A stretch of DNA of 64,000 nt, taken from positions 1-64,000 of the IMG/VR virus record IMGVR_UViG_3300008954_000029. One strand, written 5' to 3'. Position 1 is the first letter of the stretch. Each line of letters opens with the position of its first letter. The notes beneath the pieces were generated by a model. That model saw nothing but the letters and a program-made list of their open reading frames with translations. It was not told where the DNA came from and did no database searches. This document shows positions 12,598 to 59,816 of this stretch, one piece after another. A program made the position numbers and the translations under genes. The stretch comes from a virus.

Positions 12598-13200
12598 CTA
12601 GGCCTCTGGTTCGTTTTCTATCTCCTCTACAAACTCATCCAAGTCTTGTAGGTCGTACAAGACATAAACTTTCTGACGGATTCCGGGGAGGGAAAGAACT
12701 CTGTTGAAGTTCTCGTTCTCCATTTCTCGCTTCATCAAAGCGACACGATCCGGTGTTCCTCTTGCGTGGTGACGGCGCTCATACTCTTCGGCGTCATCAA
12801 TGGCGCAGTGCATAAACCGAATGTCCCTTCCGTTCTGTTCGGCAAAACGATTCAATTTGCTCACGCTGGAAATGTCTGTTATGATTACCGCCTTCCCTGG
12901 TTGATGGAAGTCGTTAATGTTCGTTCCATAGTAGTGTCCGTCATAACGATTTGTATTGATCATCAGTCCGCGGTTGAATAAGTCATTGAATTCTTTTGGA
13001 GAAACAAAATGGTATTCCTTTTCCTCAAAAGTGCGCGGAGGTCGTGTCGTGAAAGACTTTATGTGACGCCAACCTTTTCCCGTGAGGTGATTCTTGTAAG
13101 TTGTCTTTCCACAACCGGTTGGGCCAAAGATGGCGATGATAGGATCTCGGCTGCGGGACTCACTCATACGGTATTTCCATTCTTCAATTAGTTTCTTCAT
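12598..13200 (-). CDS. guanylate kinase-like P-loop kinase with divergent shared leader
   Basis: GPTGCGKT, SFTTRPPR..E..YHF, YYGT; leader MKKLIEEWKYRMSE. Confidence 0.8.
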   Translation of the reverse strand: MKKLIEEWKYRMSESRSRDPIIAIFGPTGCGKTTYKNHLTGKGWRHIKSFTTRPPRTFEEKEYHFVSPKEFNDLFNRGLMINTNRYDGHYYGTNINDFHQPGKAVIITDISSVSKLNRFAEQNGRDIRFMHCAIDDAEEYERRHHARGTPDRVALMKREMENENFNRVLSLPGIRQKVYVLYDLQDLDEFVEEIENEPEA

Positions 13201-13913
13201 CTGCTCACCTCTTCATCGGTATCGTCTATTATACCCTCTTTCAGGTTCTCTAGTTTAGCAATAGTTGCGTCAGTGGTGCCGTGCTTGTGAAGTATTCCTA
13301 TTCCGCCGGCTTCCTTCCAAGCATTAATCTTTTTGGGTGTGTCGTCAATAAGAATGTTCGGCTTGCCGTCCTCGTTGACCGCATACTTATGTTTGTTTCT
13401 TTCCACGATCGTGCGATGATCTTCAATTCCCAAGTTTCTATTGACCCAGGCGCGCTTGCCCTGGTGGTCTCCACCCTCGGGATCACTTCTCATAGGAGCA
13501 GTGAGGATAAAAGGAGCAGGCGTTAGTTCTTCAAGGTAGTTCCACAGGTCCAGACCGTCAGGCCTCTGCCAGCCCAGATTAGTCCAGAAGTCCAAGTTGT
13601 TTTGGAGGCGAGGATACATATAGTTGCGCACGGCCTGGATTCTAATCTCTTTGTGGAGACTGAAATCATCAGGAGTAACTTGGAATGGCTCTGACCTTCC
13701 AAGTTCTCGCAACTTCTCGATCATTTTATCGTAACGTTTTCTTTGTTCCTCGGGGACGCGGCTAGGGTCTGCTAAATCCTCATTTATTAATTTAGCAGCT
13801 CCCTCTTCGAAGCCTACGAGAACGCCGTCCAGGTCGCAATAAATCTGGAATGGGTAGATTTCTTCTTCGGATTCAGTCAAATAGGTTCTCCAATTTTCAA
13901 GTATGAGTTTCAT
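13197..13913 (-). CDS. HAD 5'(3')-nucleotidase-like with shared leader
   Basis: YCDLDGVL, ILTAP, GK..W, ILIDD; leader MKLILENWRTYLTE. Confidence 0.85.
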   Translation of the reverse strand: MKLILENWRTYLTESEEEIYPFQIYCDLDGVLVGFEEGAAKLINEDLADPSRVPEEQRKRYDKMIEKLRELGRSEPFQVTPDDFSLHKEIRIQAVRNYMYPRLQNNLDFWTNLGWQRPDGLDLWNYLEELTPAPFILTAPMRSDPEGGDHQGKRAWVNRNLGIEDHRTIVERNKHKYAVNEDGKPNILIDDTPKKINAWKEAGGIGILHKHGTTDATIAKLENLKEGIIDDTDEEVSR

Positions 13914-14275
13914 AACTGTACCCTTTGCACTGGTACTTTTTCCACACCGAGCCTCTTTGCGGCTTCAAGTCGATGGTGGCCATCCACAACATACCAAAAG
14001 GGTTCATCTTGGCCACTCTTCGGTGTCGGTTCGTAGTCCTCCTGCCCTTGCAACTTTGCTGTAACAACGGGCTTTTGGCTGCAAACGCTTATCGGCTCAA
14101 AGTCTCCATTTTCAATCTGGTACATTTTATTTTGTACCTGCTGCTCGCACTCTTGACTAGGACAGTCGTGGTCCTTGCCGTGACCCAACTCTTCTGTTGG
14201 GATTAGTTCCTCTATCCTAACGTGGAAAACTCCTTCGTTTAAATACTTCTTCCAATTTTCAAGTATGAGTTTCAT
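13910..14275 (-). CDS. ParB/Srx-like domain protein with shared leader
   Basis: PISV...VVDGHHRLEAAKRLG..KVPV; leader MKLILENWKKYLNE. Confidence 0.8.
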   Translation of the reverse strand: MKLILENWKKYLNEGVFHVRIEELIPTEELGHGKDHDCPSQECEQQVQNKMYQIENGDFEPISVCSQKPVVTAKLQGQEDYEPTPKSGQDEPFWYVVDGHHRLEAAKRLGVEKVPVQRVQL

Positions 14276-15223
14276 TTATTCTTCGACCTCCGGCAACTCT
14301 GGTTGCCCCTCTATAGTAGAATAACCCACATCAATAATCGCAACCTGACCGTTCTTCTCCATAATGTTTGAGGTTTTCAGGTCATCAAAAGTAATTCCGT
14401 TCTCTTTCAAGAAAGTCAATGCGGAAGCGAGTTGGTGAAAGTAATCCAGTCTGGGGTCATCAAGAAACTTGTTTGCGTATTCTTCTGCTGCCTCAACCGA
14501 ATTGAAGTATTGGTTGTAGGCACCTCCCAGCAAGATCCACAGCACCTCAAACAACTTATGTTCGGCAGGACCCCAACCCATTGCGGCTGCTATTTGCTTG
14601 ATTTTAGGGCGAACATCGGCGGCTGTCTCACTTGGCTCTCCAAGTATCGCCGGATTGTTGTTGGCTGCTTCTAAAAACTGGGCCACTAATTCTTTTCCTT
14701 TTTCAAGGTTGGCGTCATCCCAGTTATAAAATAACTCTTTGTCTTTCCTGCGAATCATAAAGTAAAGCATCTCCGCAGCATCAGCCATGTTATTCGTCGG
14801 GTAGTCCAAGAATTCATAGACGATGACATAGGGGGCCGTGCGATGCGTTCCTCCGCTGTTGTCCATGTTCTCCCTGGCTCTGCGACCAGCAGCAACGATG
14901 TCATAAACATTTGGATGAGACTTTCCTACCAAGAGGGCAGCACCTTCTGTCTCGCGACGGTCGTTCGTAAATTTGAGAACCTTGTCTCCAAACCTGTACG
15001 CCTTTCCTCGCGAGCCCTGACCCAAGAAGGACGGTTCGCCTTCCAAACCTCCCCATTCCTTGATGGCTGCTAGTTCTTCCTCGGGGATCTGAATGGTGTT
15101 ATCACTCTCACCCACCTCTTTCAAGAGGTCAAGGACAAAACGTTTTCCGGTATCGGGATCAAGAGTATTGATTCTCTCATTTAAGCGGTTGTACTCTCGC
15201 CAATTTTCAAGTAGGAGTTTCAT
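14276..15223 (-). CDS. protein kinase-like enzyme with shared leader
   Basis: LGQGSRGKAY, VLKFT, HPNV, DLKTSNI, IIDVG; leader MKLLLENWREYNRLNE. Confidence 0.8.
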   Translation of the reverse strand: MKLLLENWREYNRLNERINTLDPDTGKRFVLDLLKEVGESDNTIQIPEEELAAIKEWGGLEGEPSFLGQGSRGKAYRFGDKVLKFTNDRRETEGAALLVGKSHPNVYDIVAAGRRARENMDNSGGTHRTAPYVIVYEFLDYPTNNMADAAEMLYFMIRRKDKELFYNWDDANLEKGKELVAQFLEAANNNPAILGEPSETAADVRPKIKQIAAAMGWGPAEHKLFEVLWILLGGAYNQYFNSVEAAEEYANKFLDDPRLDYFHQLASALTFLKENGITFDDLKTSNIMEKNGQVAIIDVGYSTIEGQPELPEVEE

Positions 15224-15663
15224 TGTGGAACTTCCTCGACAACACCCCTCAACATAATGCCCGACAAGGGCTCGAAGTTTTCCTCCGGTATCTTGTTGGA
15301 ATGGAAGGGCTTACCTCCCCCTTCGCGATTGACGGCAACAGTAACGTGCGGAAAGGAAATCTTCTTACTGATTTCGCTTGGGGCCTCAACCTTTACAGCC
15401 ATAGCTCTCTCATCTTGCCCGACAGCCACAACGGGCAGTTCCACCTCTGAACCCGCAGGATAAGTCTGTGAGAAGTCGTGCTTACCTTTCTTGTGTACCA
15501 AAGATCCTAATGTGATAGTCATGTGGTGAGCAACGGGTTCCCACCCTTCTGGAATTGGAAGGCTCAAAAGCGCTTCCTTCGAGGCGTCGTCCAAAACTAT
15601 TCCAGAGTACGCTATGTTCTGTTCTGTTAAGAACTCTCGCCAATTTTCAAGTAGGAGTTTCAT
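15220..15663 (-). CDS. 2H phosphoesterase with shared leader
   Basis: Two HxT motifs (HMT, HVT); leader MKLLLENWREFLTE. Confidence 0.8.
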   Translation of the reverse strand: MKLLLENWREFLTEQNIAYSGIVLDDASKEALLSLPIPEGWEPVAHHMTITLGSLVHKKGKHDFSQTYPAGSEVELPVVAVGQDERAMAVKVEAPSEISKKISFPHVTVAVNREGGGKPFHSNKIPEENFEPLSGIMLRGVVEEVPQ

Positions 15664-16169
15664 TTACTTATTACACCCCCATGTTTCTCATAAAATTCTA
15701 AATCCTCTGGGGTTGCTTCCCTGACTAGATGTGAGTAATCATCTACATTCACCTCTTCGACGTCACACACTTGCGCATCAACCTCTGAAACCCATTCCGG
15801 TTTATCTCTCGGCACGCCAGTATTTCTAAAGGTATCTTTTGGCAATTTGTACAAAAAAACCTTCTCCCCATGACGTATCTTCCCTTTAACAACTACTAAT
15901 TGAAGTGGCTTTGCGCTAACGTTGGTGAAAACATCAGGCCACGACCCATCGGAATCTCTTCCCACTAAACCAGCCATAATTGCCTGATTCCTGTCCTCAG
16001 TTGCGTATACTGCTTTAAGGTTTTGTTCTGGAGCGCCGCCGATATCCTCGGCTTGTCGAGCTTGCACTGGACCTTCAAATTTTACAGCAGAGCCATGCCA
16101 CACGAACTCGTCGCAAGGTTTCTTCTCTTCATTCAAATACTTTCGCCAATTTTCAAGTAGGAGTTTCAT
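15660..16169 (-). CDS. ADP-ribosyltransferase-like (H-Y-E/Arr type) with shared leader
   Basis: VWHGS...VYAT...LY...EWVS; leader MKLLLENWRKYLNE. Confidence 0.65.
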   Translation of the reverse strand: MKLLLENWRKYLNEEKKPCDEFVWHGSAVKFEGPVQARQAEDIGGAPEQNLKAVYATEDRNQAIMAGLVGRDSDGSWPDVFTNVSAKPLQLVVVKGKIRHGEKVFLYKLPKDTFRNTGVPRDKPEWVSEVDAQVCDVEEVNVDDYSHLVREATPEDLEFYEKHGGVISK

Positions 16170-17074
16170 ATATCAATCACCACAAATTCATCTGGGCTTT
16201 CTATGCTCATTCCGAGATTACCAGGATGAACGTCTTGGAGGACGTGCGTTGTCCTGAGACGCACAGCGAGTCTGGTAAGTGTTTTAATCAAATTCATTGT
16301 TAGGTCGGGAGTGAGTACGCCCATCTCCATATCAAGTATATCTTCTTCTTCCGCAAAAGGCAAGCTCTTTCTGTTGCGCCACCAGTGTTGAACCAGTTCC
16401 ACTTTCTCATCCACGCTCCGATTGGGGTCCTTTAAGAGAGCCCCGTGATAAAGTGCGGCCTCCACAAACTGCGCCAGTTGGTGAATGTCAAAGTCAAGAC
16501 GCATCAAATCAAACTCGGGCAGTTTTCCCAGGCTGTGCGGGGCAGCATCAGACAACGGTATAATTCCACTCATTTCAACGTATTTTAGGTCACGGCCTGA
16601 TTGATCAGGGAAAGGAACTTCCCCATAGTCGTGAATTGCCGGCTCGTCCGTTGAGGACTCTCCCTTAAACTGTCTGTCTTGAATACCAGCATACCAATCT
16701 AGATCATCATACTCTCCACCGCCGTATCCACTCCGAAATAGACTAAAAATGTGATCGTTGTCCAGCCGGTAGGCAATCTTCTTGGTGCCGCTCCCGATGA
16801 CTTTAAGAATCTTATTTGTCCGCAGAGGCGGTATACTTCCCACTAATTGAATCAATTCTTCCTCGTCAAGATCCCAAAGAGCGAACTTCTCCATCGCGTC
16901 AGGACCTTGCGTCGTGGGGGTAATCTTTAACATTTTCCGATTGTGATGAACGATCGGGTCATCAGCGAGCGGAACTTGTTCCGTCTCTCTTTCTCCGTCA
17001 TCACCAAGGTCGGGATCGTCGTCAAGGACGCGCTCATTCAAATACTTCCGCCAATTTTCGAATAGAAGTTTCAT
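16166..17074 (-). CDS. protein kinase-like enzyme with shared leader
   Basis: IGSGTKKIAY, PAIHDYG, DVHPGN, VVID; leader MKLLFENWRKYLNE. Confidence 0.7.
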   Translation of the reverse strand: MKLLFENWRKYLNERVLDDDPDLGDDGERETEQVPLADDPIVHHNRKMLKITPTTQGPDAMEKFALWDLDEEELIQLVGSIPPLRTNKILKVIGSGTKKIAYRLDNDHIFSLFRSGYGGGEYDDLDWYAGIQDRQFKGESSTDEPAIHDYGEVPFPDQSGRDLKYVEMSGIIPLSDAAPHSLGKLPEFDLMRLDFDIHQLAQFVEAALYHGALLKDPNRSVDEKVELVQHWWRNRKSLPFAEEEDILDMEMGVLTPDLTMNLIKTLTRLAVRLRTTHVLQDVHPGNLGMSIESPDEFVVIDI

Positions 17075-17077
17075 ATC

Positions 17078-17577
17078 TTATAAATAGTTTCTTCTCTTCG
17101 TTTCATCCCGGTAATACTTCTCGGTGCCGTAGTACTTAACGCGTGTCCCAAACAGCCAATCAGCGAAGGGAAGTAGAACTCCCCAGTTAGCCTCCTTCGG
17201 TCCTAGATGGTGGTCATAATGCCACGGAAGCCAACACTTGGCCCACTCCACATCCATATGTGATTTGGTGTGAGCCCAGTAATATAATAACATATATGTG
17301 TATAATGTCAAGACAAAAGTTGGAGAAACATAAAAGAGAGGAGCGTGCGAGAGAATGAGGACGATACCAACAAAGATTTCTTTTCCGTAGAAGTTACCAT
17401 CTTTATAAGTGTTATCGTGCCCTCGGGATTTTGTTACGCGTTTGTGATGATCGTGGAAATGAAAAGACCAATAAGATCCCTTATTCTTGCCAAGCGTGTG
17501 TAACAAGAACTTATGAATAAATACTTCGGCGATGTTTGCGTATGCTATCGCCCCTAAAACAACAACTACTACCCCAC
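17078..17577 (-). CDS. fatty acid hydroxylase/sterol desaturase-like membrane protein, 5' end uncertain
   Basis: His boxes IHKFLLH, HFHDHH, HTKSH, HYDHH and NWGV; the first box begins upstream of the TTG at 17506. Confidence 0.7.
17081..17088 (-). promoter_or_regulatory. ACTATTTA motif heading the leader-peptide operon
   Basis: AACTATTTATAAGAT-ATG. Confidence 0.65.
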
Positions 17578-51671: not shown

Positions 51672-52517
51672 TTATTCGTCCTCGCACTCATCGTCATCGG
51701 CGATATCGACGTCCTCGGGTACCTCTTCGCCACGAAGGCGCGCGCACTCTTCGAATGTCATGTTATTGTCGAAAATAAAGTGATAATCGTTGTCCCTGAG
51801 CAGGTTGTAAACCCTCTCGATGGGAATGAAGTAACCCATGTGCGTGATGGGGTCGCTGCTGAAGCCCATGGGTTGTACTGTGATCCTGGAAGGGATTCCA
51901 ATGTATTCGTATTTCTTCCTCTCGTCCGAGTAACGATAGAGGGCTCCTCCGGAGTTTCCAAAAATAGTCTGGGCAGTCGACATCCAATAGCGGTAATGGC
52001 TGATCTCATCATCCATGTAACAAATGTGACCGCTTGTGGCGATTGGGGCGTGGCCTAAGGACGCACCGACAGCATAGCAGGGATCAAAAATGTGAATGTT
52101 TTCGATGTCGCTCTCTGGGAACAGATTTGCGACATAAGGAGCACGGGTCTCCTTGTCGCGGACACGCAGGAGGGCCCAGTCCTGGCCGCCTTCCACCTCT
52201 GAATAGGCGACGATGTCCGCCTCAATAGCAAAACTACCAATACAGTGTGAATAATTGTTGTATTTAAAATATTCCACGTATACTGTATCAAGGATCTCGG
52301 TATCCATCTTCTTTTTCTTTACTGGATTCCATCTTTTCTCAACCTTAATACACTTTGCGACTACGTGGTGGTTGGTAATGACATAGGTGTGAAACTCGTC
52401 TCCGTGCTTCTCTGAATAGACAACGGTACCCGAACCACCAGAGCCCTTTGCTCTAACGCGGACGGTAGGGTAGAACATCTCTTCGTGCTTTTTAATAATT
52501 TTTGGTGATACAGGCAT
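51672..52517 (-). CDS. trypsin-like serine protease, no signal peptide
   Basis: TNHHV, DWALL, GNSGGAL; ACTATTTA at 52558-52565. Confidence 0.85.
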   Translation of the reverse strand: MPVSPKIIKKHEEMFYPTVRVRAKGSGGSGTVVYSEKHGDEFHTYVITNHHVVAKCIKVEKRWNPVKKKKMDTEILDTVYVEYFKYNNYSHCIGSFAIEADIVAYSEVEGGQDWALLRVRDKETRAPYVANLFPESDIENIHIFDPCYAVGASLGHAPIATSGHICYMDDEISHYRYWMSTAQTIFGNSGGALYRYSDERKKYEYIGIPSRITVQPMGFSSDPITHMGYFIPIERVYNLLRDNDYHFIFDNNMTFEECARLRGEEVPEDVDIADDDECEDE

Positions 52518-56353: not shown

Positions 56354-56459
56354 CCCTCTTTGTCAATACTAGTATTGTACAGGTCTGGACTGTTTTAGTT
56401 TAGATCTTTACTTAGAATAAAGTATCACAAGTTTAAAGATGTGTCAAGGACAAAAAGGG

Positions 56460-56532
56460 TGGAGCCGGAGGGACTTGAACCCACGACATTCACGCTGCCA
56501 GCGTGACGCTCTCCCAACTGAGCTACGGCCCC
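56460..56532 (-). tRNA. tRNA-Ala(GGC)
   Basis: G3:U70 pair, anticodon arm TCACG-CTGGCAG-CGTGA; ACTATTTA just upstream (56543-56550). Confidence 0.9.
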
Positions 56533-56588
56533 TTTTCACCCTTAAATAGTCGGCCCCTTTTAAAGGTTCCTTAATTGTATGATTGCGG

Positions 56589-57505: not shown

Positions 57506-58201
57506 TTAGTCTGAATTCTTCTTTAGTTTTGTAAGAAAGGAGTTGAGTACTCCTCTGTGGTGCCAGTAATACTTCGGCGTCTTGTTTTCAACTTGTAACT
57601 TTTCTTCGCGAATGCGAATCTCCCTTACGAGAGCATCTTCTTCGTTGATGTCACCGTTGATAACTGGCTGGTTGGACTCTTCAACGATTTCGTAATCTTC
57701 GTCGAAGAAGGGGATGATGAACTTGCGGCCAGAGGAGTGCCTCTCCTGAGAGTAGAAGTCTTCACGGTCCTGGACGTCAGAACCAACAAGAGCAACGTCC
57801 CTTTCCTGGACCACCTTGTAACCTTCAATGTACTGAAAGCGCATTGATTCATCATCCCTCTTGATCCCCCAGATTACAGACTCTTGTCCGAAGTCCTTGC
57901 CAAGGTTCATAATCTCGGACTTTGTGATGTTGGGAACAAGAAAAGAGTTTTCAAGATTGCCGAACTTTCCCTTGATCCTGATGTAGCCCAGATTCCTCTC
58001 GCGCAGACGTTCTTGGAGAAGCTTGTTACGCTCTTGATTCTCTTGTGGATTCAGTTGGTTGCCGTCAGGGTTCTCTGCGGTGATGAATCCAACTGTATGG
58101 ACGTTAGGGACGGAGCCCATGAGCATGTTGGCGATGCGAGGAAACCCCGACTCTGTAATCAAGGTCTTTCGCCAACTTTCCATAATTTCTCTCATTATCA
58201 T
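57506..58201 (-). CDS. SAM lyase-like (T3 SAMase/DUF3293-like) protein with W-leader
   Basis: ITAEN..N..RN..L...G.F..ENSFLV...FGQESV; leader MREIMESWRKTLITE; ACTATTTA at 58209-58216. Confidence 0.65.
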   Translation of the reverse strand: MIMREIMESWRKTLITESGFPRIANMLMGSVPNVHTVGFITAENPDGNQLNPQENQERNKLLQERLRERNLGYIRIKGKFGNLENSFLVPNITKSEIMNLGKDFGQESVIWGIKRDDESMRFQYIEGYKVVQERDVALVGSDVQDREDFYSQERHSSGRKFIIPFFDEDYEIVEESNQPVINGDINEEDALVREIRIREEKLQVENKTPKYYWHHRGVLNSFLTKLKKNSD

Positions 58202-58331
58202 TGTCCTATAAATAGTTGCTTATTCTTCTTTGCTCTCGTCTTCTTCCTTGGGCAAATAGTTGAGGTTTGCGACCACAAATACTATAATACCACCGATGAT
58301 TGACAAAGTCAAGAACAGATTACGAATTGTC

Positions 58332-58847
58332 TCAAGCAACAATTTGGTATTCTTTATCTCCGCGATACTTGACAAACCAGTCGGGGACCTTACTCTTCGG
58401 GTATCGCATATTACTCTTGTTGGCATAATAACGACGGTATGACTCCACGATGTTGTCGCCTTTGAAATAATCAGGCATTGCCATCTTCAACGGAGTTGAA
58501 AAGTGACAATCAAAGTTGTCGCGGTCATACAAGGAGACGACCTGATCTAGCACGGCATCGCACTTATGTGTCTTACCGAATCTCTCGGTATACTCCTCTA
58601 GCATCGCGGCGCAGTGAACAACAAGCGCCCTAAAGTTTGCTGAAGATTCAGCGGCCCATAAACACGATGGGTGTTTAGGATTAAAAGATTTATAGGGTGC
58701 TTGGATCCCCTGCTCGTTCAAGACCGTGGAAAGGATCTGACAAGACTCCAAAATCATCTTGACGACGCGCAAGTTATCTAGCGACTGTGCAGACTTGACC
58801 CAATCAACGTCGCCATCGTTATTGCTTTCAATGGCGAAAATGTTCAC
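58332..58847 (-). CDS. pyrimidine-dimer DNA glycosylase (DenV)-like family protein
   Basis: NIF..VVKMILESCQILST...HP...W..S..N...EYTERFGKTH. Confidence 0.75.
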   Translation of the reverse strand: MNIFAIESNNDGDVDWVKSAQSLDNLRVVKMILESCQILSTVLNEQGIQAPYKSFNPKHPSCLWAAESSANFRALVVHCAAMLEEYTERFGKTHKCDAVLDQVVSLYDRDNFDCHFSTPLKMAMPDYFKGDNIVESYRRYYANKSNMRYPKSKVPDWFVKYRGDKEYQIVA

Positions 58848-59134
58848 AGGATCATCTTCTTTACTTGGTCGTAAGCGTCGATAAGAGCATCCATGTCCTT
58901 CTCGTTCTTGATCATCCGATAAGCCTTGACGGCGGCCCAAATCTCATCCTTGGTGAGGTACCCCTCCTCAATGTAAGACTTGCGCATGTCGCGCTTGTGC
59001 TCCTTGAAGGGCTCCATAGCGGCCTCGGTTTCCGCTAGGTCCTTCAAATAGTTCTTGACGTGCTCCTCCTTTGAAAGGACAACACCCTCTTCCTCATCAT
59101 CCTGATAAGGCTCAATGTGCACTACGTTACTCAT
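58844..59134 (-). CDS. small helical DNA-binding protein (GapR/T4 DsbA-like)
   Basis: E.EA.MEP.KE.KRD....EEG; amphipathic helices. Confidence 0.45.
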   Translation of the reverse strand: MSNVVHIEPYQDDEEEGVVLSKEEHVKNYLKDLAETEAAMEPFKEHKRDMRKSYIEEGYLTKDEIWAAVKAYRMIKNEKDMDALIDAYDQVKKMIL

Positions 59135-59398
59135 TTATTCTTCTCCTTTACTAATCCAATCGTCAATGGAAATCATCGACAGTGCGAAAGCCCCACCAAC
59201 AAGGTACAGGCCCAAAACGAACTTTGCTGCTGCGGCAGCGTCATCAGTGGCGACCCAAAGACTCGTAAACGATACGAGTACCCACAACAGGTTCGCCACC
59301 ACTCTTCTACTATTTTTTGTCTTAAACATACTAACCTCCTTAGTTATTTTCGTAAGCAGCCAGGAGTTCAAAAGACTCTCGTGACTGCTTTTCCTCAT
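59135..59398 (-). CDS. two-TM membrane protein (probable start MFKTK)
   Basis: Two hydrophobic segments; SD GGAGG before MFKTK. Confidence 0.6.
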   Translation of the reverse strand: MRKSSHESLLNSWLLTKITKEVSMFKTKNSRRVVANLLWVLVSFTSLWVATDDAAAAAKFVLGLYLVGGAFALSMISIDDWISKGEE

Positions 59399-59816
59399 TA
59401 GCCCTAATCTTCTCTAACTCGCCCTGGTAAATTCTTTCTCTTAACTCTGTCGTTGACCAACCGTGGTCTCTACTGTTGAAGTATACCTTAATTGGTAGGT
59501 CGTGTCCAGTAAAATCTTTACCCTTATGGTCGGCGCCTATAATGCGAACTTCCGGATTGATGAACCGGAGGAGTTCGTACAATTCCTCCTCGGTGCTGTA
59601 CTCAACAACCTCATCCACGTGCCTAACTGCTCGCAATTGGATGCGGCGCTCGTCTAGACTCTGAACAGGCTTGTTCTTGGCCGGCCTATCAATGGTCGGA
59701 TCCGTTTGAAGTCCGACAATCAGATAGTCACAAACAGAGCGCGCCTCTTGAAGCATCAGGACGTGGCCTGCGTGAAGCAAGTCAAAGGCGCCGCAAGTAA
59801 ATCCTTTATTCATCAC
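59340..59816 (-). CDS. cytidylyltransferase (TagD/RfaE-II-like)
   Basis: GAFDLLHAGH, LIVGL, VDEV, STT.LR. Confidence 0.88.
   Translation of the reverse strand: MMNKGFTCGAFDLLHAGHVLMLQEARSVCDYLIVGLQTDPTIDRPAKNKPVQSLDERRIQLRAVRHVDEVVEYSTEEELYELLRFINPEVRIIGADHKGKDFTGHDLPIKVYFNSRDHGWSTTELRERIYQGELEKIRANEEKQSRESFELLAAYENN

Follow-up and report, generated by a model that had tools for sequence, protein, structure and literature searches.

S-Adenosylmethionine (SAM) lyases are early-expressed enzymes directed against restriction and against bacteriophage exclusion (BREX) systems. The gene described here lies at positions 57506 to 58201 (minus strand; 231 codons plus stop) of the first 64 kb, hereafter the window, of the 84,662-bp viral record IMGVR_UViG_3300008954_000029 (IMG/VR), and it appears to encode a member of this superfamily behind an N-terminal peptide reminiscent of the head-targeting tags of T4. 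Of the described structures, the T3 SAMase is a monomeric nine-stranded barrel and Svi3-3 a trimer. Among active SAMases, strict conservation is reported only for Gly56, Glu69 and Gln104 (Svi3-3 numbering), with conservative replacements at Tyr58 and Glu105, and all five residues contact SAM; Tyr58 packs on the sulfonium, and the Y58F variant keeps one fifth of the activity (PMC7877911). A T3 E68Q/Q94A double mutant is reported to be inactive (bioRxiv paper). The aromatic residue and the catalytic Glu of SAM lyases are said to be separated by a T-loop of 10-12 residues that helps shape substrate specificity, and when SAM and SAM-AMP lyases are compared, the Glu and the Gln are given as the sole structurally conserved residues (PMC12255297).

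The leader of the T4 internal proteins is described as a capsid targeting sequence that is removed by the gp21 protease, and the T-even internal proteins as a diverse anti-defence set sharing only this tag (PMC9026906, PMC3012670). The cleavage motif of gp21-type proteases is given as (L/I)-x-E (PMC9026906), and IPII and IPIII of T4 carry the leader MKTYQEFIAE. A virion-borne SAM lyase is represented in print by one proteomic observation, made in the cyanophage S-CREM2 (a Synechococcus phage), whose gp6 (OR473000; 'S-adenosyl-L-methionine hydrolase (virion protein)') was detected with 19 peptides (26% coverage) among 52 virion proteins by mass spectrometry; an APH-like kinase and a cytidylyltransferase were also among them, and the authors proposed that the SAM hydrolase passes into the host at infection and there shields the DNA against restriction (PMC10665884). 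Among the matches listed in our literature search, this paper was the only one to pair a SAM lyase with the term virion-associated, and none paired a SAM lyase or SAMase with a capsid targeting sequence; the word stem 'cleav' is absent from the S-CREM2 text (PMC10665884).

We confidently assign the protein encoded at 57506-58201 to the SAM-lyase superfamily and regard its barrel as T3-type and its ligand-binding core as intact. With more reserve, and leaning slightly towards doubt when all its parts are taken together, we propose that the gene encodes the precursor of a T3-type enzyme of the DUF3293 branch of this superfamily that is loaded into the phage head and injected.

The open reading frame (ORF; P0001) begins MIMREIMESWRKTLITES and contains the motifs TAENP, KGKFGNLENSFLV and FGQESV. 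The Pfam profile DUF3293 (PF11697) matches residues 40-109 over its full length (profile positions 1-73 of 73; 54.5 bits for a cut-off of 25; E = 1.8e-14), and S-AdoMet_lyase (PF23780) matches residues 49-134 (profile positions 9-99 of 133) with 22.7 bits for a cut-off of 28 (E = 1e-4). On these profiles the protein classes as a DUF3293 member and, being below the gathering threshold of PF23780, not as a member of the Pfam SAM-lyase family. We found 91 homologues, mainly in marine metagenomes; precomputed Pfam hits place DUF3293 in 88 of them and the SAM-lyase family additionally in 11. The 92 sequences were reduced by hand by 21 near-duplicates or fragments, and by one fusion protein discussed below, to an alignment of 70. 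Its profile matched 5242 cluster representatives (50% identity) at E <= 0.001, so that the family is a large one. Searches of NCBIfam and PHROGs with the protein gave nothing useful, and a literature search on DUF3293, PF11697 and PF23780 found no paper.

An AlphaFold (AF2) model built on the 70-sequence alignment had a predicted local distance difference test score of 85.4 and a predicted template modelling score of 0.79, with low confidence at residues 1-20 and in a linker near residues 171-180. Residues 28-165 (57707-58120, minus strand), which include the DUF3293 match, are modelled as a SAM-lyase-like beta-barrel. All of the top six Foldseek hits in the PDB are SAM lyase entries, headed by the T3 enzyme (8bb1_E; E = 2.1e-4). 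VIA-align superposed model residues 28-165 on this chain with a Z score of 14.4 (root-mean-square deviation 2.4 A; 129/147 residues) and gave 13.3 for 7ock_A, 6.9 for Svi3-3 (6znb) and at most 6.5 for entries other than SAM lyases; as modelled, the barrel is of the T3 type. Among the matches in the viral structure library BFVD are proteins of T7-like phages that bear the name SAM hydrolase, as well as cyanophage proteins and segments of giant 'polyvalent' proteins. The C-terminal extension (residues 166-231; 57509-57706, minus strand) comprises the low-confidence linker and a helical hairpin (helices 190-202 and 209-230) in which R216 is nearly invariant across the family.

The sequence link to known SAM lyases runs through S-CREM2 gp6, a PF23780 member with 70.1 bits. 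In hhalign comparisons gp6 matched the DUF3293 family profile, the region around the leader included, with 92.5% probability (E = 4.9e-7) and the T3 family profile with 92.3% probability (E = 5.4e-7). Because gp6 bridges the two families, homology to SAM lyases is significant at the profile level, and by alignment our protein is a diverged homologue of a tagged, virion-detected protein. Comparisons made directly with T3 SAMase do not reach significance but nevertheless yield the register first drawn by eye. That by-eye parallel, on which the original prediction rested, thus stands above chance, as judged by the PF23780 E value, by the SAM lyases as best PDB folds and by the exact register obtained through gp6. 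The wording 'SAM-lyase-like' is upheld by the fold (the structural comparison with SAM lyases proposed at that time gave the 8bb1_E match), by the conserved Gly/Glu/Gln triad and by the homology through gp6, and the ORF, the leader and the ACTATTTA motif that had been noticed along with it are all real.

The leader comprises residues 1-17 (MIMREIMESWRKTLITE; 58151-58201, minus strand), is modelled with low confidence and ends L14-I15-T16-E17, followed by Ser. A second in-frame ATG lies at 58195 (MREIMESW...) and is the start used by a homologue of 97% identity (P0002). We searched for a leader pattern defined as M, 1-7 residues, W[RK], 1-5 residues and [LIMFV]xE with at least 60 open codons downstream. 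It occurs in 10 ORFs of the 84.7-kb contig and in none of the reversed sequence; 30 triplet shuffles averaged 0.1 occurrences and never exceeded 1. Seven of the ten are consecutive genes at 12598-17088 (minus strand) and share the leader type MKLL[LFI]ENW[RK]xYLxE on unrelated bodies (two kinase-like, one guanylate-kinase-like, and others), as expected of a modular tag on unrelated enzymes; BLASTP of the leader-bearing kinases of the window against the S-CREM2 virion kinase gp14 gave nothing (E = 0.5). Six leader-type genes with differing bodies are likewise clustered in a complete 185-kb relative (G001). In the 70-sequence alignment, a hydrophobic residue (L, I, V, M or F) occupies position 15 in 54/70, and Glu occupies position 17 in 51/70, mostly followed by Ser, Ala or Gly. 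Homologues keep the peptide pattern while its sequence drifts, and because distant homologues do so though their DNA differs, selection appears to act on the peptide.

The leader and the T4 tag have the same start, an acidic and an aromatic residue mid-way and the same hydrophobic-x-Glu end. Peptidase_S77, the T4-type prohead protease, was found in 5/5 large relatives with a homologue and has no match on the contig of our gene, which is about 47% complete. The T4-protease type of leader end, the S77 protease in relatives and the presence of the tagged homologue gp6 in virions together make packaging and injection plausible, and by analogy with T4 we consider leader-driven head loading and injection probable.

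Two further observations concern leaders of this kind. One leader-bearing protein of 147 residues from the seven-gene cluster (15220-15663, minus strand) has two H-x-T motifs and a below-cut-off match to 2H-type phosphodiesterases (E = 0.009), and is a candidate phosphoesterase acting on cyclic nucleotides or RNA ends. A second leader type, MKLTKxQLxxIIKEELxxLLxE, begins several ORFs of the 185-kb relative (near 843, 1158, 2117 and 25602), directly behind ACTAnTTA, and also heads many homologues of our protein in other viral loci (e.g. L056 and L058); two or more families of N-terminal tags appear to be in use among these phages.

Seven nucleotides before the first ATG lies the ACTATTTA motif (58209-58216, minus strand), a candidate late-promoter element. 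It occurs 12 times in the window where 1.14 are expected, a count reached by 0 of 100 shuffles, and 11 of the 12 copies are on the minus strand. Over the whole contig ACTAnTTA has 16 copies on the gene strand and one on the other, and after 14 of those 16 an ORF starts within 70 nt, including the sheath, tube and head-tail adaptor-like genes; the 185-kb relative shows the same strand bias (32 vs 1), again with copies before sheath-like and tube-like ORFs. This distribution fits a late promoter. In several genes the gap from ACTATTTA to the ATG is only 5-8 nt (17088, 33183, 36413, 58216), and in others (sheath, tube, 39335) it is 29-49 nt with a Shine-Dalgarno-like AGGAG; the short-spacing class may yield leaderless or nearly leaderless mRNAs. 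A further copy at 56543-56550 lies just upstream of a tRNA-Ala (56458-56532, minus strand) that heads a run of Ala, Ser and Lys tRNAs, so these tRNAs may be transcribed from the same type of element.

Two other settings of the domain bear on packaging. Translation of the S-CREM2 record showed that gp6, gp13 and gp14, all in the virion proteome, begin with T4-like tags, and the gp6 gene is preceded by a TATAAATA motif. In 14/77 related viral loci the domain is contained in giant open frames with the same motifs (TAENP, N, GxF/Y, E, QES), and it is found at residues 1323-1392 of a 3694-residue 'structural protein' of Flavobacterium podophages; the basis of that label could not be traced, and we found no paper with virion data on these phages.

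The enzyme could instead act only in the infected cell, without being packaged, with its N-terminal peptide serving as a translation-initiation or regulatory region, as a tag for the chaperonin encoded by the phage itself or as a targeting signal for a different assembly. Across the seven-gene cluster the initial 24-40 nt of each gene hardly differ in DNA, much like a regulatory or recombination element, but the peptide pattern persists in distant homologues whose DNA differs. The phage does encode a GroEL, and its contig carries no head genes to compare with; the pattern nonetheless ends in the motif of the T4 protease, and relatives have that protease. The homologue in the 185-kb relative follows a ribonucleotide reductase gene and a small gene and lacks the late motif, which would suit a purely intracellular enzyme, whereas the reported finding of gp6 in virions and the occurrence of the same domain within giant virion proteins speak for a packaged one. 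We consider this explanation unlikely.

The hairpin G78-K-F80-G-N-L-E84 (57950-57970, minus strand) matches T3 G55-x-Y57...E68, and Q106-E107-S108 (57878-57886, minus strand) corresponds to Svi3-3 Gln104-Glu105-Ser106 and to T3 Q94-D95-C96. Aligned through gp6, A42, N55, G78, F80, E84, Q106 and E107 are equivalent to A17, N27, G55, Y57, E68, Q94 and D95 of T3 SAMase. In the 70-sequence alignment G78 and Q106 are present in 70/70, E84 and N55 in 69/70, an aromatic residue at position 80 in 70/70 (F 47, Y 23) and E or D at 107 in 63/70. As aligned, the core keeps the residues that hold SAM in its reactive conformation (G78, F80, E84 and Q106-E107-S108), and from sequence and model we judge that the protein probably cleaves SAM or a SAM derivative.

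The barrel might alternatively have been kept for a ligand other than SAM, such as SAM-AMP or another adenosyl compound or defence signal, or for service as a sponge. The T-loop of our protein has only 3 residues, and the conformation of this loop is reported to differ between SAM and SAM-AMP lyases, whose shared structural elements are limited to the Glu and the Gln (PMC12255297); since the T-loop bears on specificity and only these two residues are shared, the substrate of the DUF3293 branch is not to be taken for granted. In T41-A-E-N44-P45, moreover, T41, N44 and P45 are invariant in the family and not in T3, which has other residues at the aligned N44, and the Pfam SAM-lyase score lies under its cut-off. 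The methionine half of SAM, on the other hand, is contacted in Svi3-3 by Glu69, Gln104, Glu105 and Ser106, all with identical counterparts here; Tyr58 is replaced by F or Y, and among solved structures a true SAM lyase is the nearest by a wide margin. We hold a different ligand to be rather improbable.

A metagenomic protein of 209 residues with 19 member sequences (P0090) fuses the product of the denV-like neighboring gene in frame to the last ~40 residues of our protein; its two parts correspond to 58332-58940 and 57506-57630 of the window. A relative has thus deleted a small intervening ORF together with the whole SAM-lyase-like barrel, which fits a dispensable accessory gene. That the protein has no catalytic function and is an internal head or scaffold-like component retaining an old fold is very improbable: T4 internal proteins are reported to include non-enzymes, and no activity data for any DUF3293 protein and no paper on DUF3293, PF11697 or PF23780 were found, but conservation of the ligand-binding residues is complete or almost complete in the 70 diverse sequences and in the giant-protein copies, and the natural deletion variant without the barrel fits an accessory effector and not a structural need.

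A wider reading, which we offer as speculative and rather unlikely as a whole, takes DUF3293, with at least 5242 clusters at 50% identity, as a large unrecognised branch of the SAM-lyase superfamily specialised as virion-delivered cargo, behind protease-cleaved leaders in T4-like myoviruses or within giant ejected proteins in podoviruses. On that reading the short T-loop and TAENP may be adaptations to a substrate different from free SAM, for example a SAM-derived defence signal.

Under our preferred reading, that of a head-loaded and injected enzyme, the gene would be transcribed late from the ACTAnTTA element that it has in common with tail genes. The 17-residue leader would act like the T4 capsid targeting sequence and bring the precursor into the prohead core, where a T4-type (S77) prohead protease would remove it after Glu17. 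The mature enzyme would be carried in the head, enter the host with the DNA and cleave SAM or a SAM-derived molecule to methylthioadenosine (or a derivative of it) and homoserine lactone by a unimolecular lyase mechanism. SAM would thereby fall before any phage gene is expressed, blunting type I restriction-modification and BREX. If this is true, a ready-made SAM lyase delivered with the DNA acts ahead of transcription and closes the interval left to SAM-dependent defences. What is new here is a link between the uncharacterised DUF3293 and the fold and active site of SAM lyases, seen in a branch of the T4-like marine phages other than the cyanophages and with a different leader type and a short T-loop, together with a connection from a free-standing protein to the domain as it occurs within giant virion proteins of podophages. 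E84, Q106 and cleavage after E17 offer a simple test set for a family of thousands of proteins.

Several observations weigh against this reading. On the side of the enzyme, the PF23780 score is sub-threshold (22.7 vs 28 bits). PDB sequence searches with the single sequence and with the profile found no SAM lyase; their best hits, a homeobox protein (E = 3e-4, in the C-terminal tail) and the proteasome subunit Rpn3 (E = 0.75), were set aside as chance. With hhalign, the family gave no significant match either to T3 SAMase as a single sequence (E = 0.35) or to 19 T3-like sequences (E = 0.082). Position 80 is Phe, the substitution that leaves Svi3-3 five-fold weaker as Y58F, and the F80-E84 loop has 3 residues (G81-N82-L83) as against 10 in T3 and in S-CREM2 gp6. 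On the side of packaging, a different gene caller placed the start at M26 and so excluded the leader, which is at least four residues longer than the T4 tag and whose likeness to it carries no alignment statistic. The homologue in the 185-kb relative has no ACTAnTTA directly upstream, the nearest copy being 3.1 kb upstream, and neither a prohead protease nor a capsid gene was found on the contig at its ~47% completeness. The protein is acidic (isoelectric point 5.4) where gp6 is basic (9.5), an objection tempered by the virion-detected gp12 and gp14 of S-CREM2, which are likewise acidic. The S-CREM2 authors themselves caution that abundant proteins may contaminate virion preparations (PMC10665884).

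The record that carries the gene is about 47% complete by CheckV. It encodes a tail sheath (Pfam), tail tube, tape-measure-like and head-tail adaptor-like proteins (PHROGs), a GroEL, a DnaE-type polymerase and seven tRNAs. Because the nearest cultured relatives of the sheath are T4-like phages (cyanophages, Pelagibacter phage HTVC008M and a Microcystis phage), the source phage is, by this marker, an uncultured, distant T4-like marine myovirus. The small ORF lost from the fusion protein (58220-58426, minus strand) is flanked by the denV-like gene and ours, has one hydrophobic segment and overlaps the end of the denV-like ORF; the fusion protein suggests that the denV-like gene itself starts at an internal VNIFAIE and not at 58940. 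A cytidylyltransferase-like ORF (59340-59816, minus strand), recognised by eye only from a FTCGAFDLLHAGH motif, lies 1.1 kb upstream of our gene and is without a W-type leader; a cytidylyltransferase is one of the non-structural proteins reported from S-CREM2 virions. A trypsin-like peptidase gene at 51672-52517 (minus strand; Pfam Trypsin_2, E = 9e-13) is preceded by the ACTATTTA motif and may encode another virion or cargo protein. In the complete 185-kb relative, the homologue of our gene stands after the ribonucleotide reductase gene and the small gene.

Compared with the T3 SAM lyase gp0.3 (PDB 8BB1 and 7OCK; PF23780), our protein has the same monomeric beta-barrel with two outer helices and the same conserved Ala, Asn, Gly, aromatic, Glu and Gln-Asp/Glu residues in identical order, and both are encoded by phage accessory genes. 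The T3 enzyme, however, is reported to be the first early product, made in the cell, and to bind the host MetK through its N-terminal tail, whereas ours has a cleavable-looking leader, a late-type upstream motif and Phe for Tyr, a T-loop of 3 in place of 10 residues and a 66-residue C-terminal helical extension without a T3 counterpart. S-CREM2 gp6 is homologous to it in the N-terminal half, has a tag ending in L-x-E, and comes from a T4-like marine myovirus with a denV-like gene a few genes upstream. Unlike our protein, gp6 is a true PF23780 member with a loop of T3 length, a tag of the T4 type (MKDFDSFLEE), the TATAAATA motif upstream and a long basic C-terminal tail, and its presence in virions was measured.

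With IPI, IPII, IPIII and Alt of T4 our protein shares the arrangement in which a short N-terminal propeptide, ending in (I/L)-x-E, is common to unrelated accessory proteins of one phage; the T4 cargo is reported to be injected and to counter host defence. The leader described here is longer and has a Trp-Arg/Lys core, and its cargo consists of acidic enzymes and not of small basic proteins. The ip genes of T4 also follow denV, much as our gene lies near a denV-like gene; we give little weight to this synteny with T4 (denV, ip genes and tRNAs), which may be chance, as a denV-like gene adjoins a homologue in only 1/77 related loci. The giant 'polyvalent' virion proteins of podophages, finally, contain a DUF3293 domain with the same TAENP, N, GxF/Y, E and QES motifs, but carry it within polyproteins of ~450 to 3700 residues, where the T4-like phage has a free-standing protein of 231 residues with a leader of its own.

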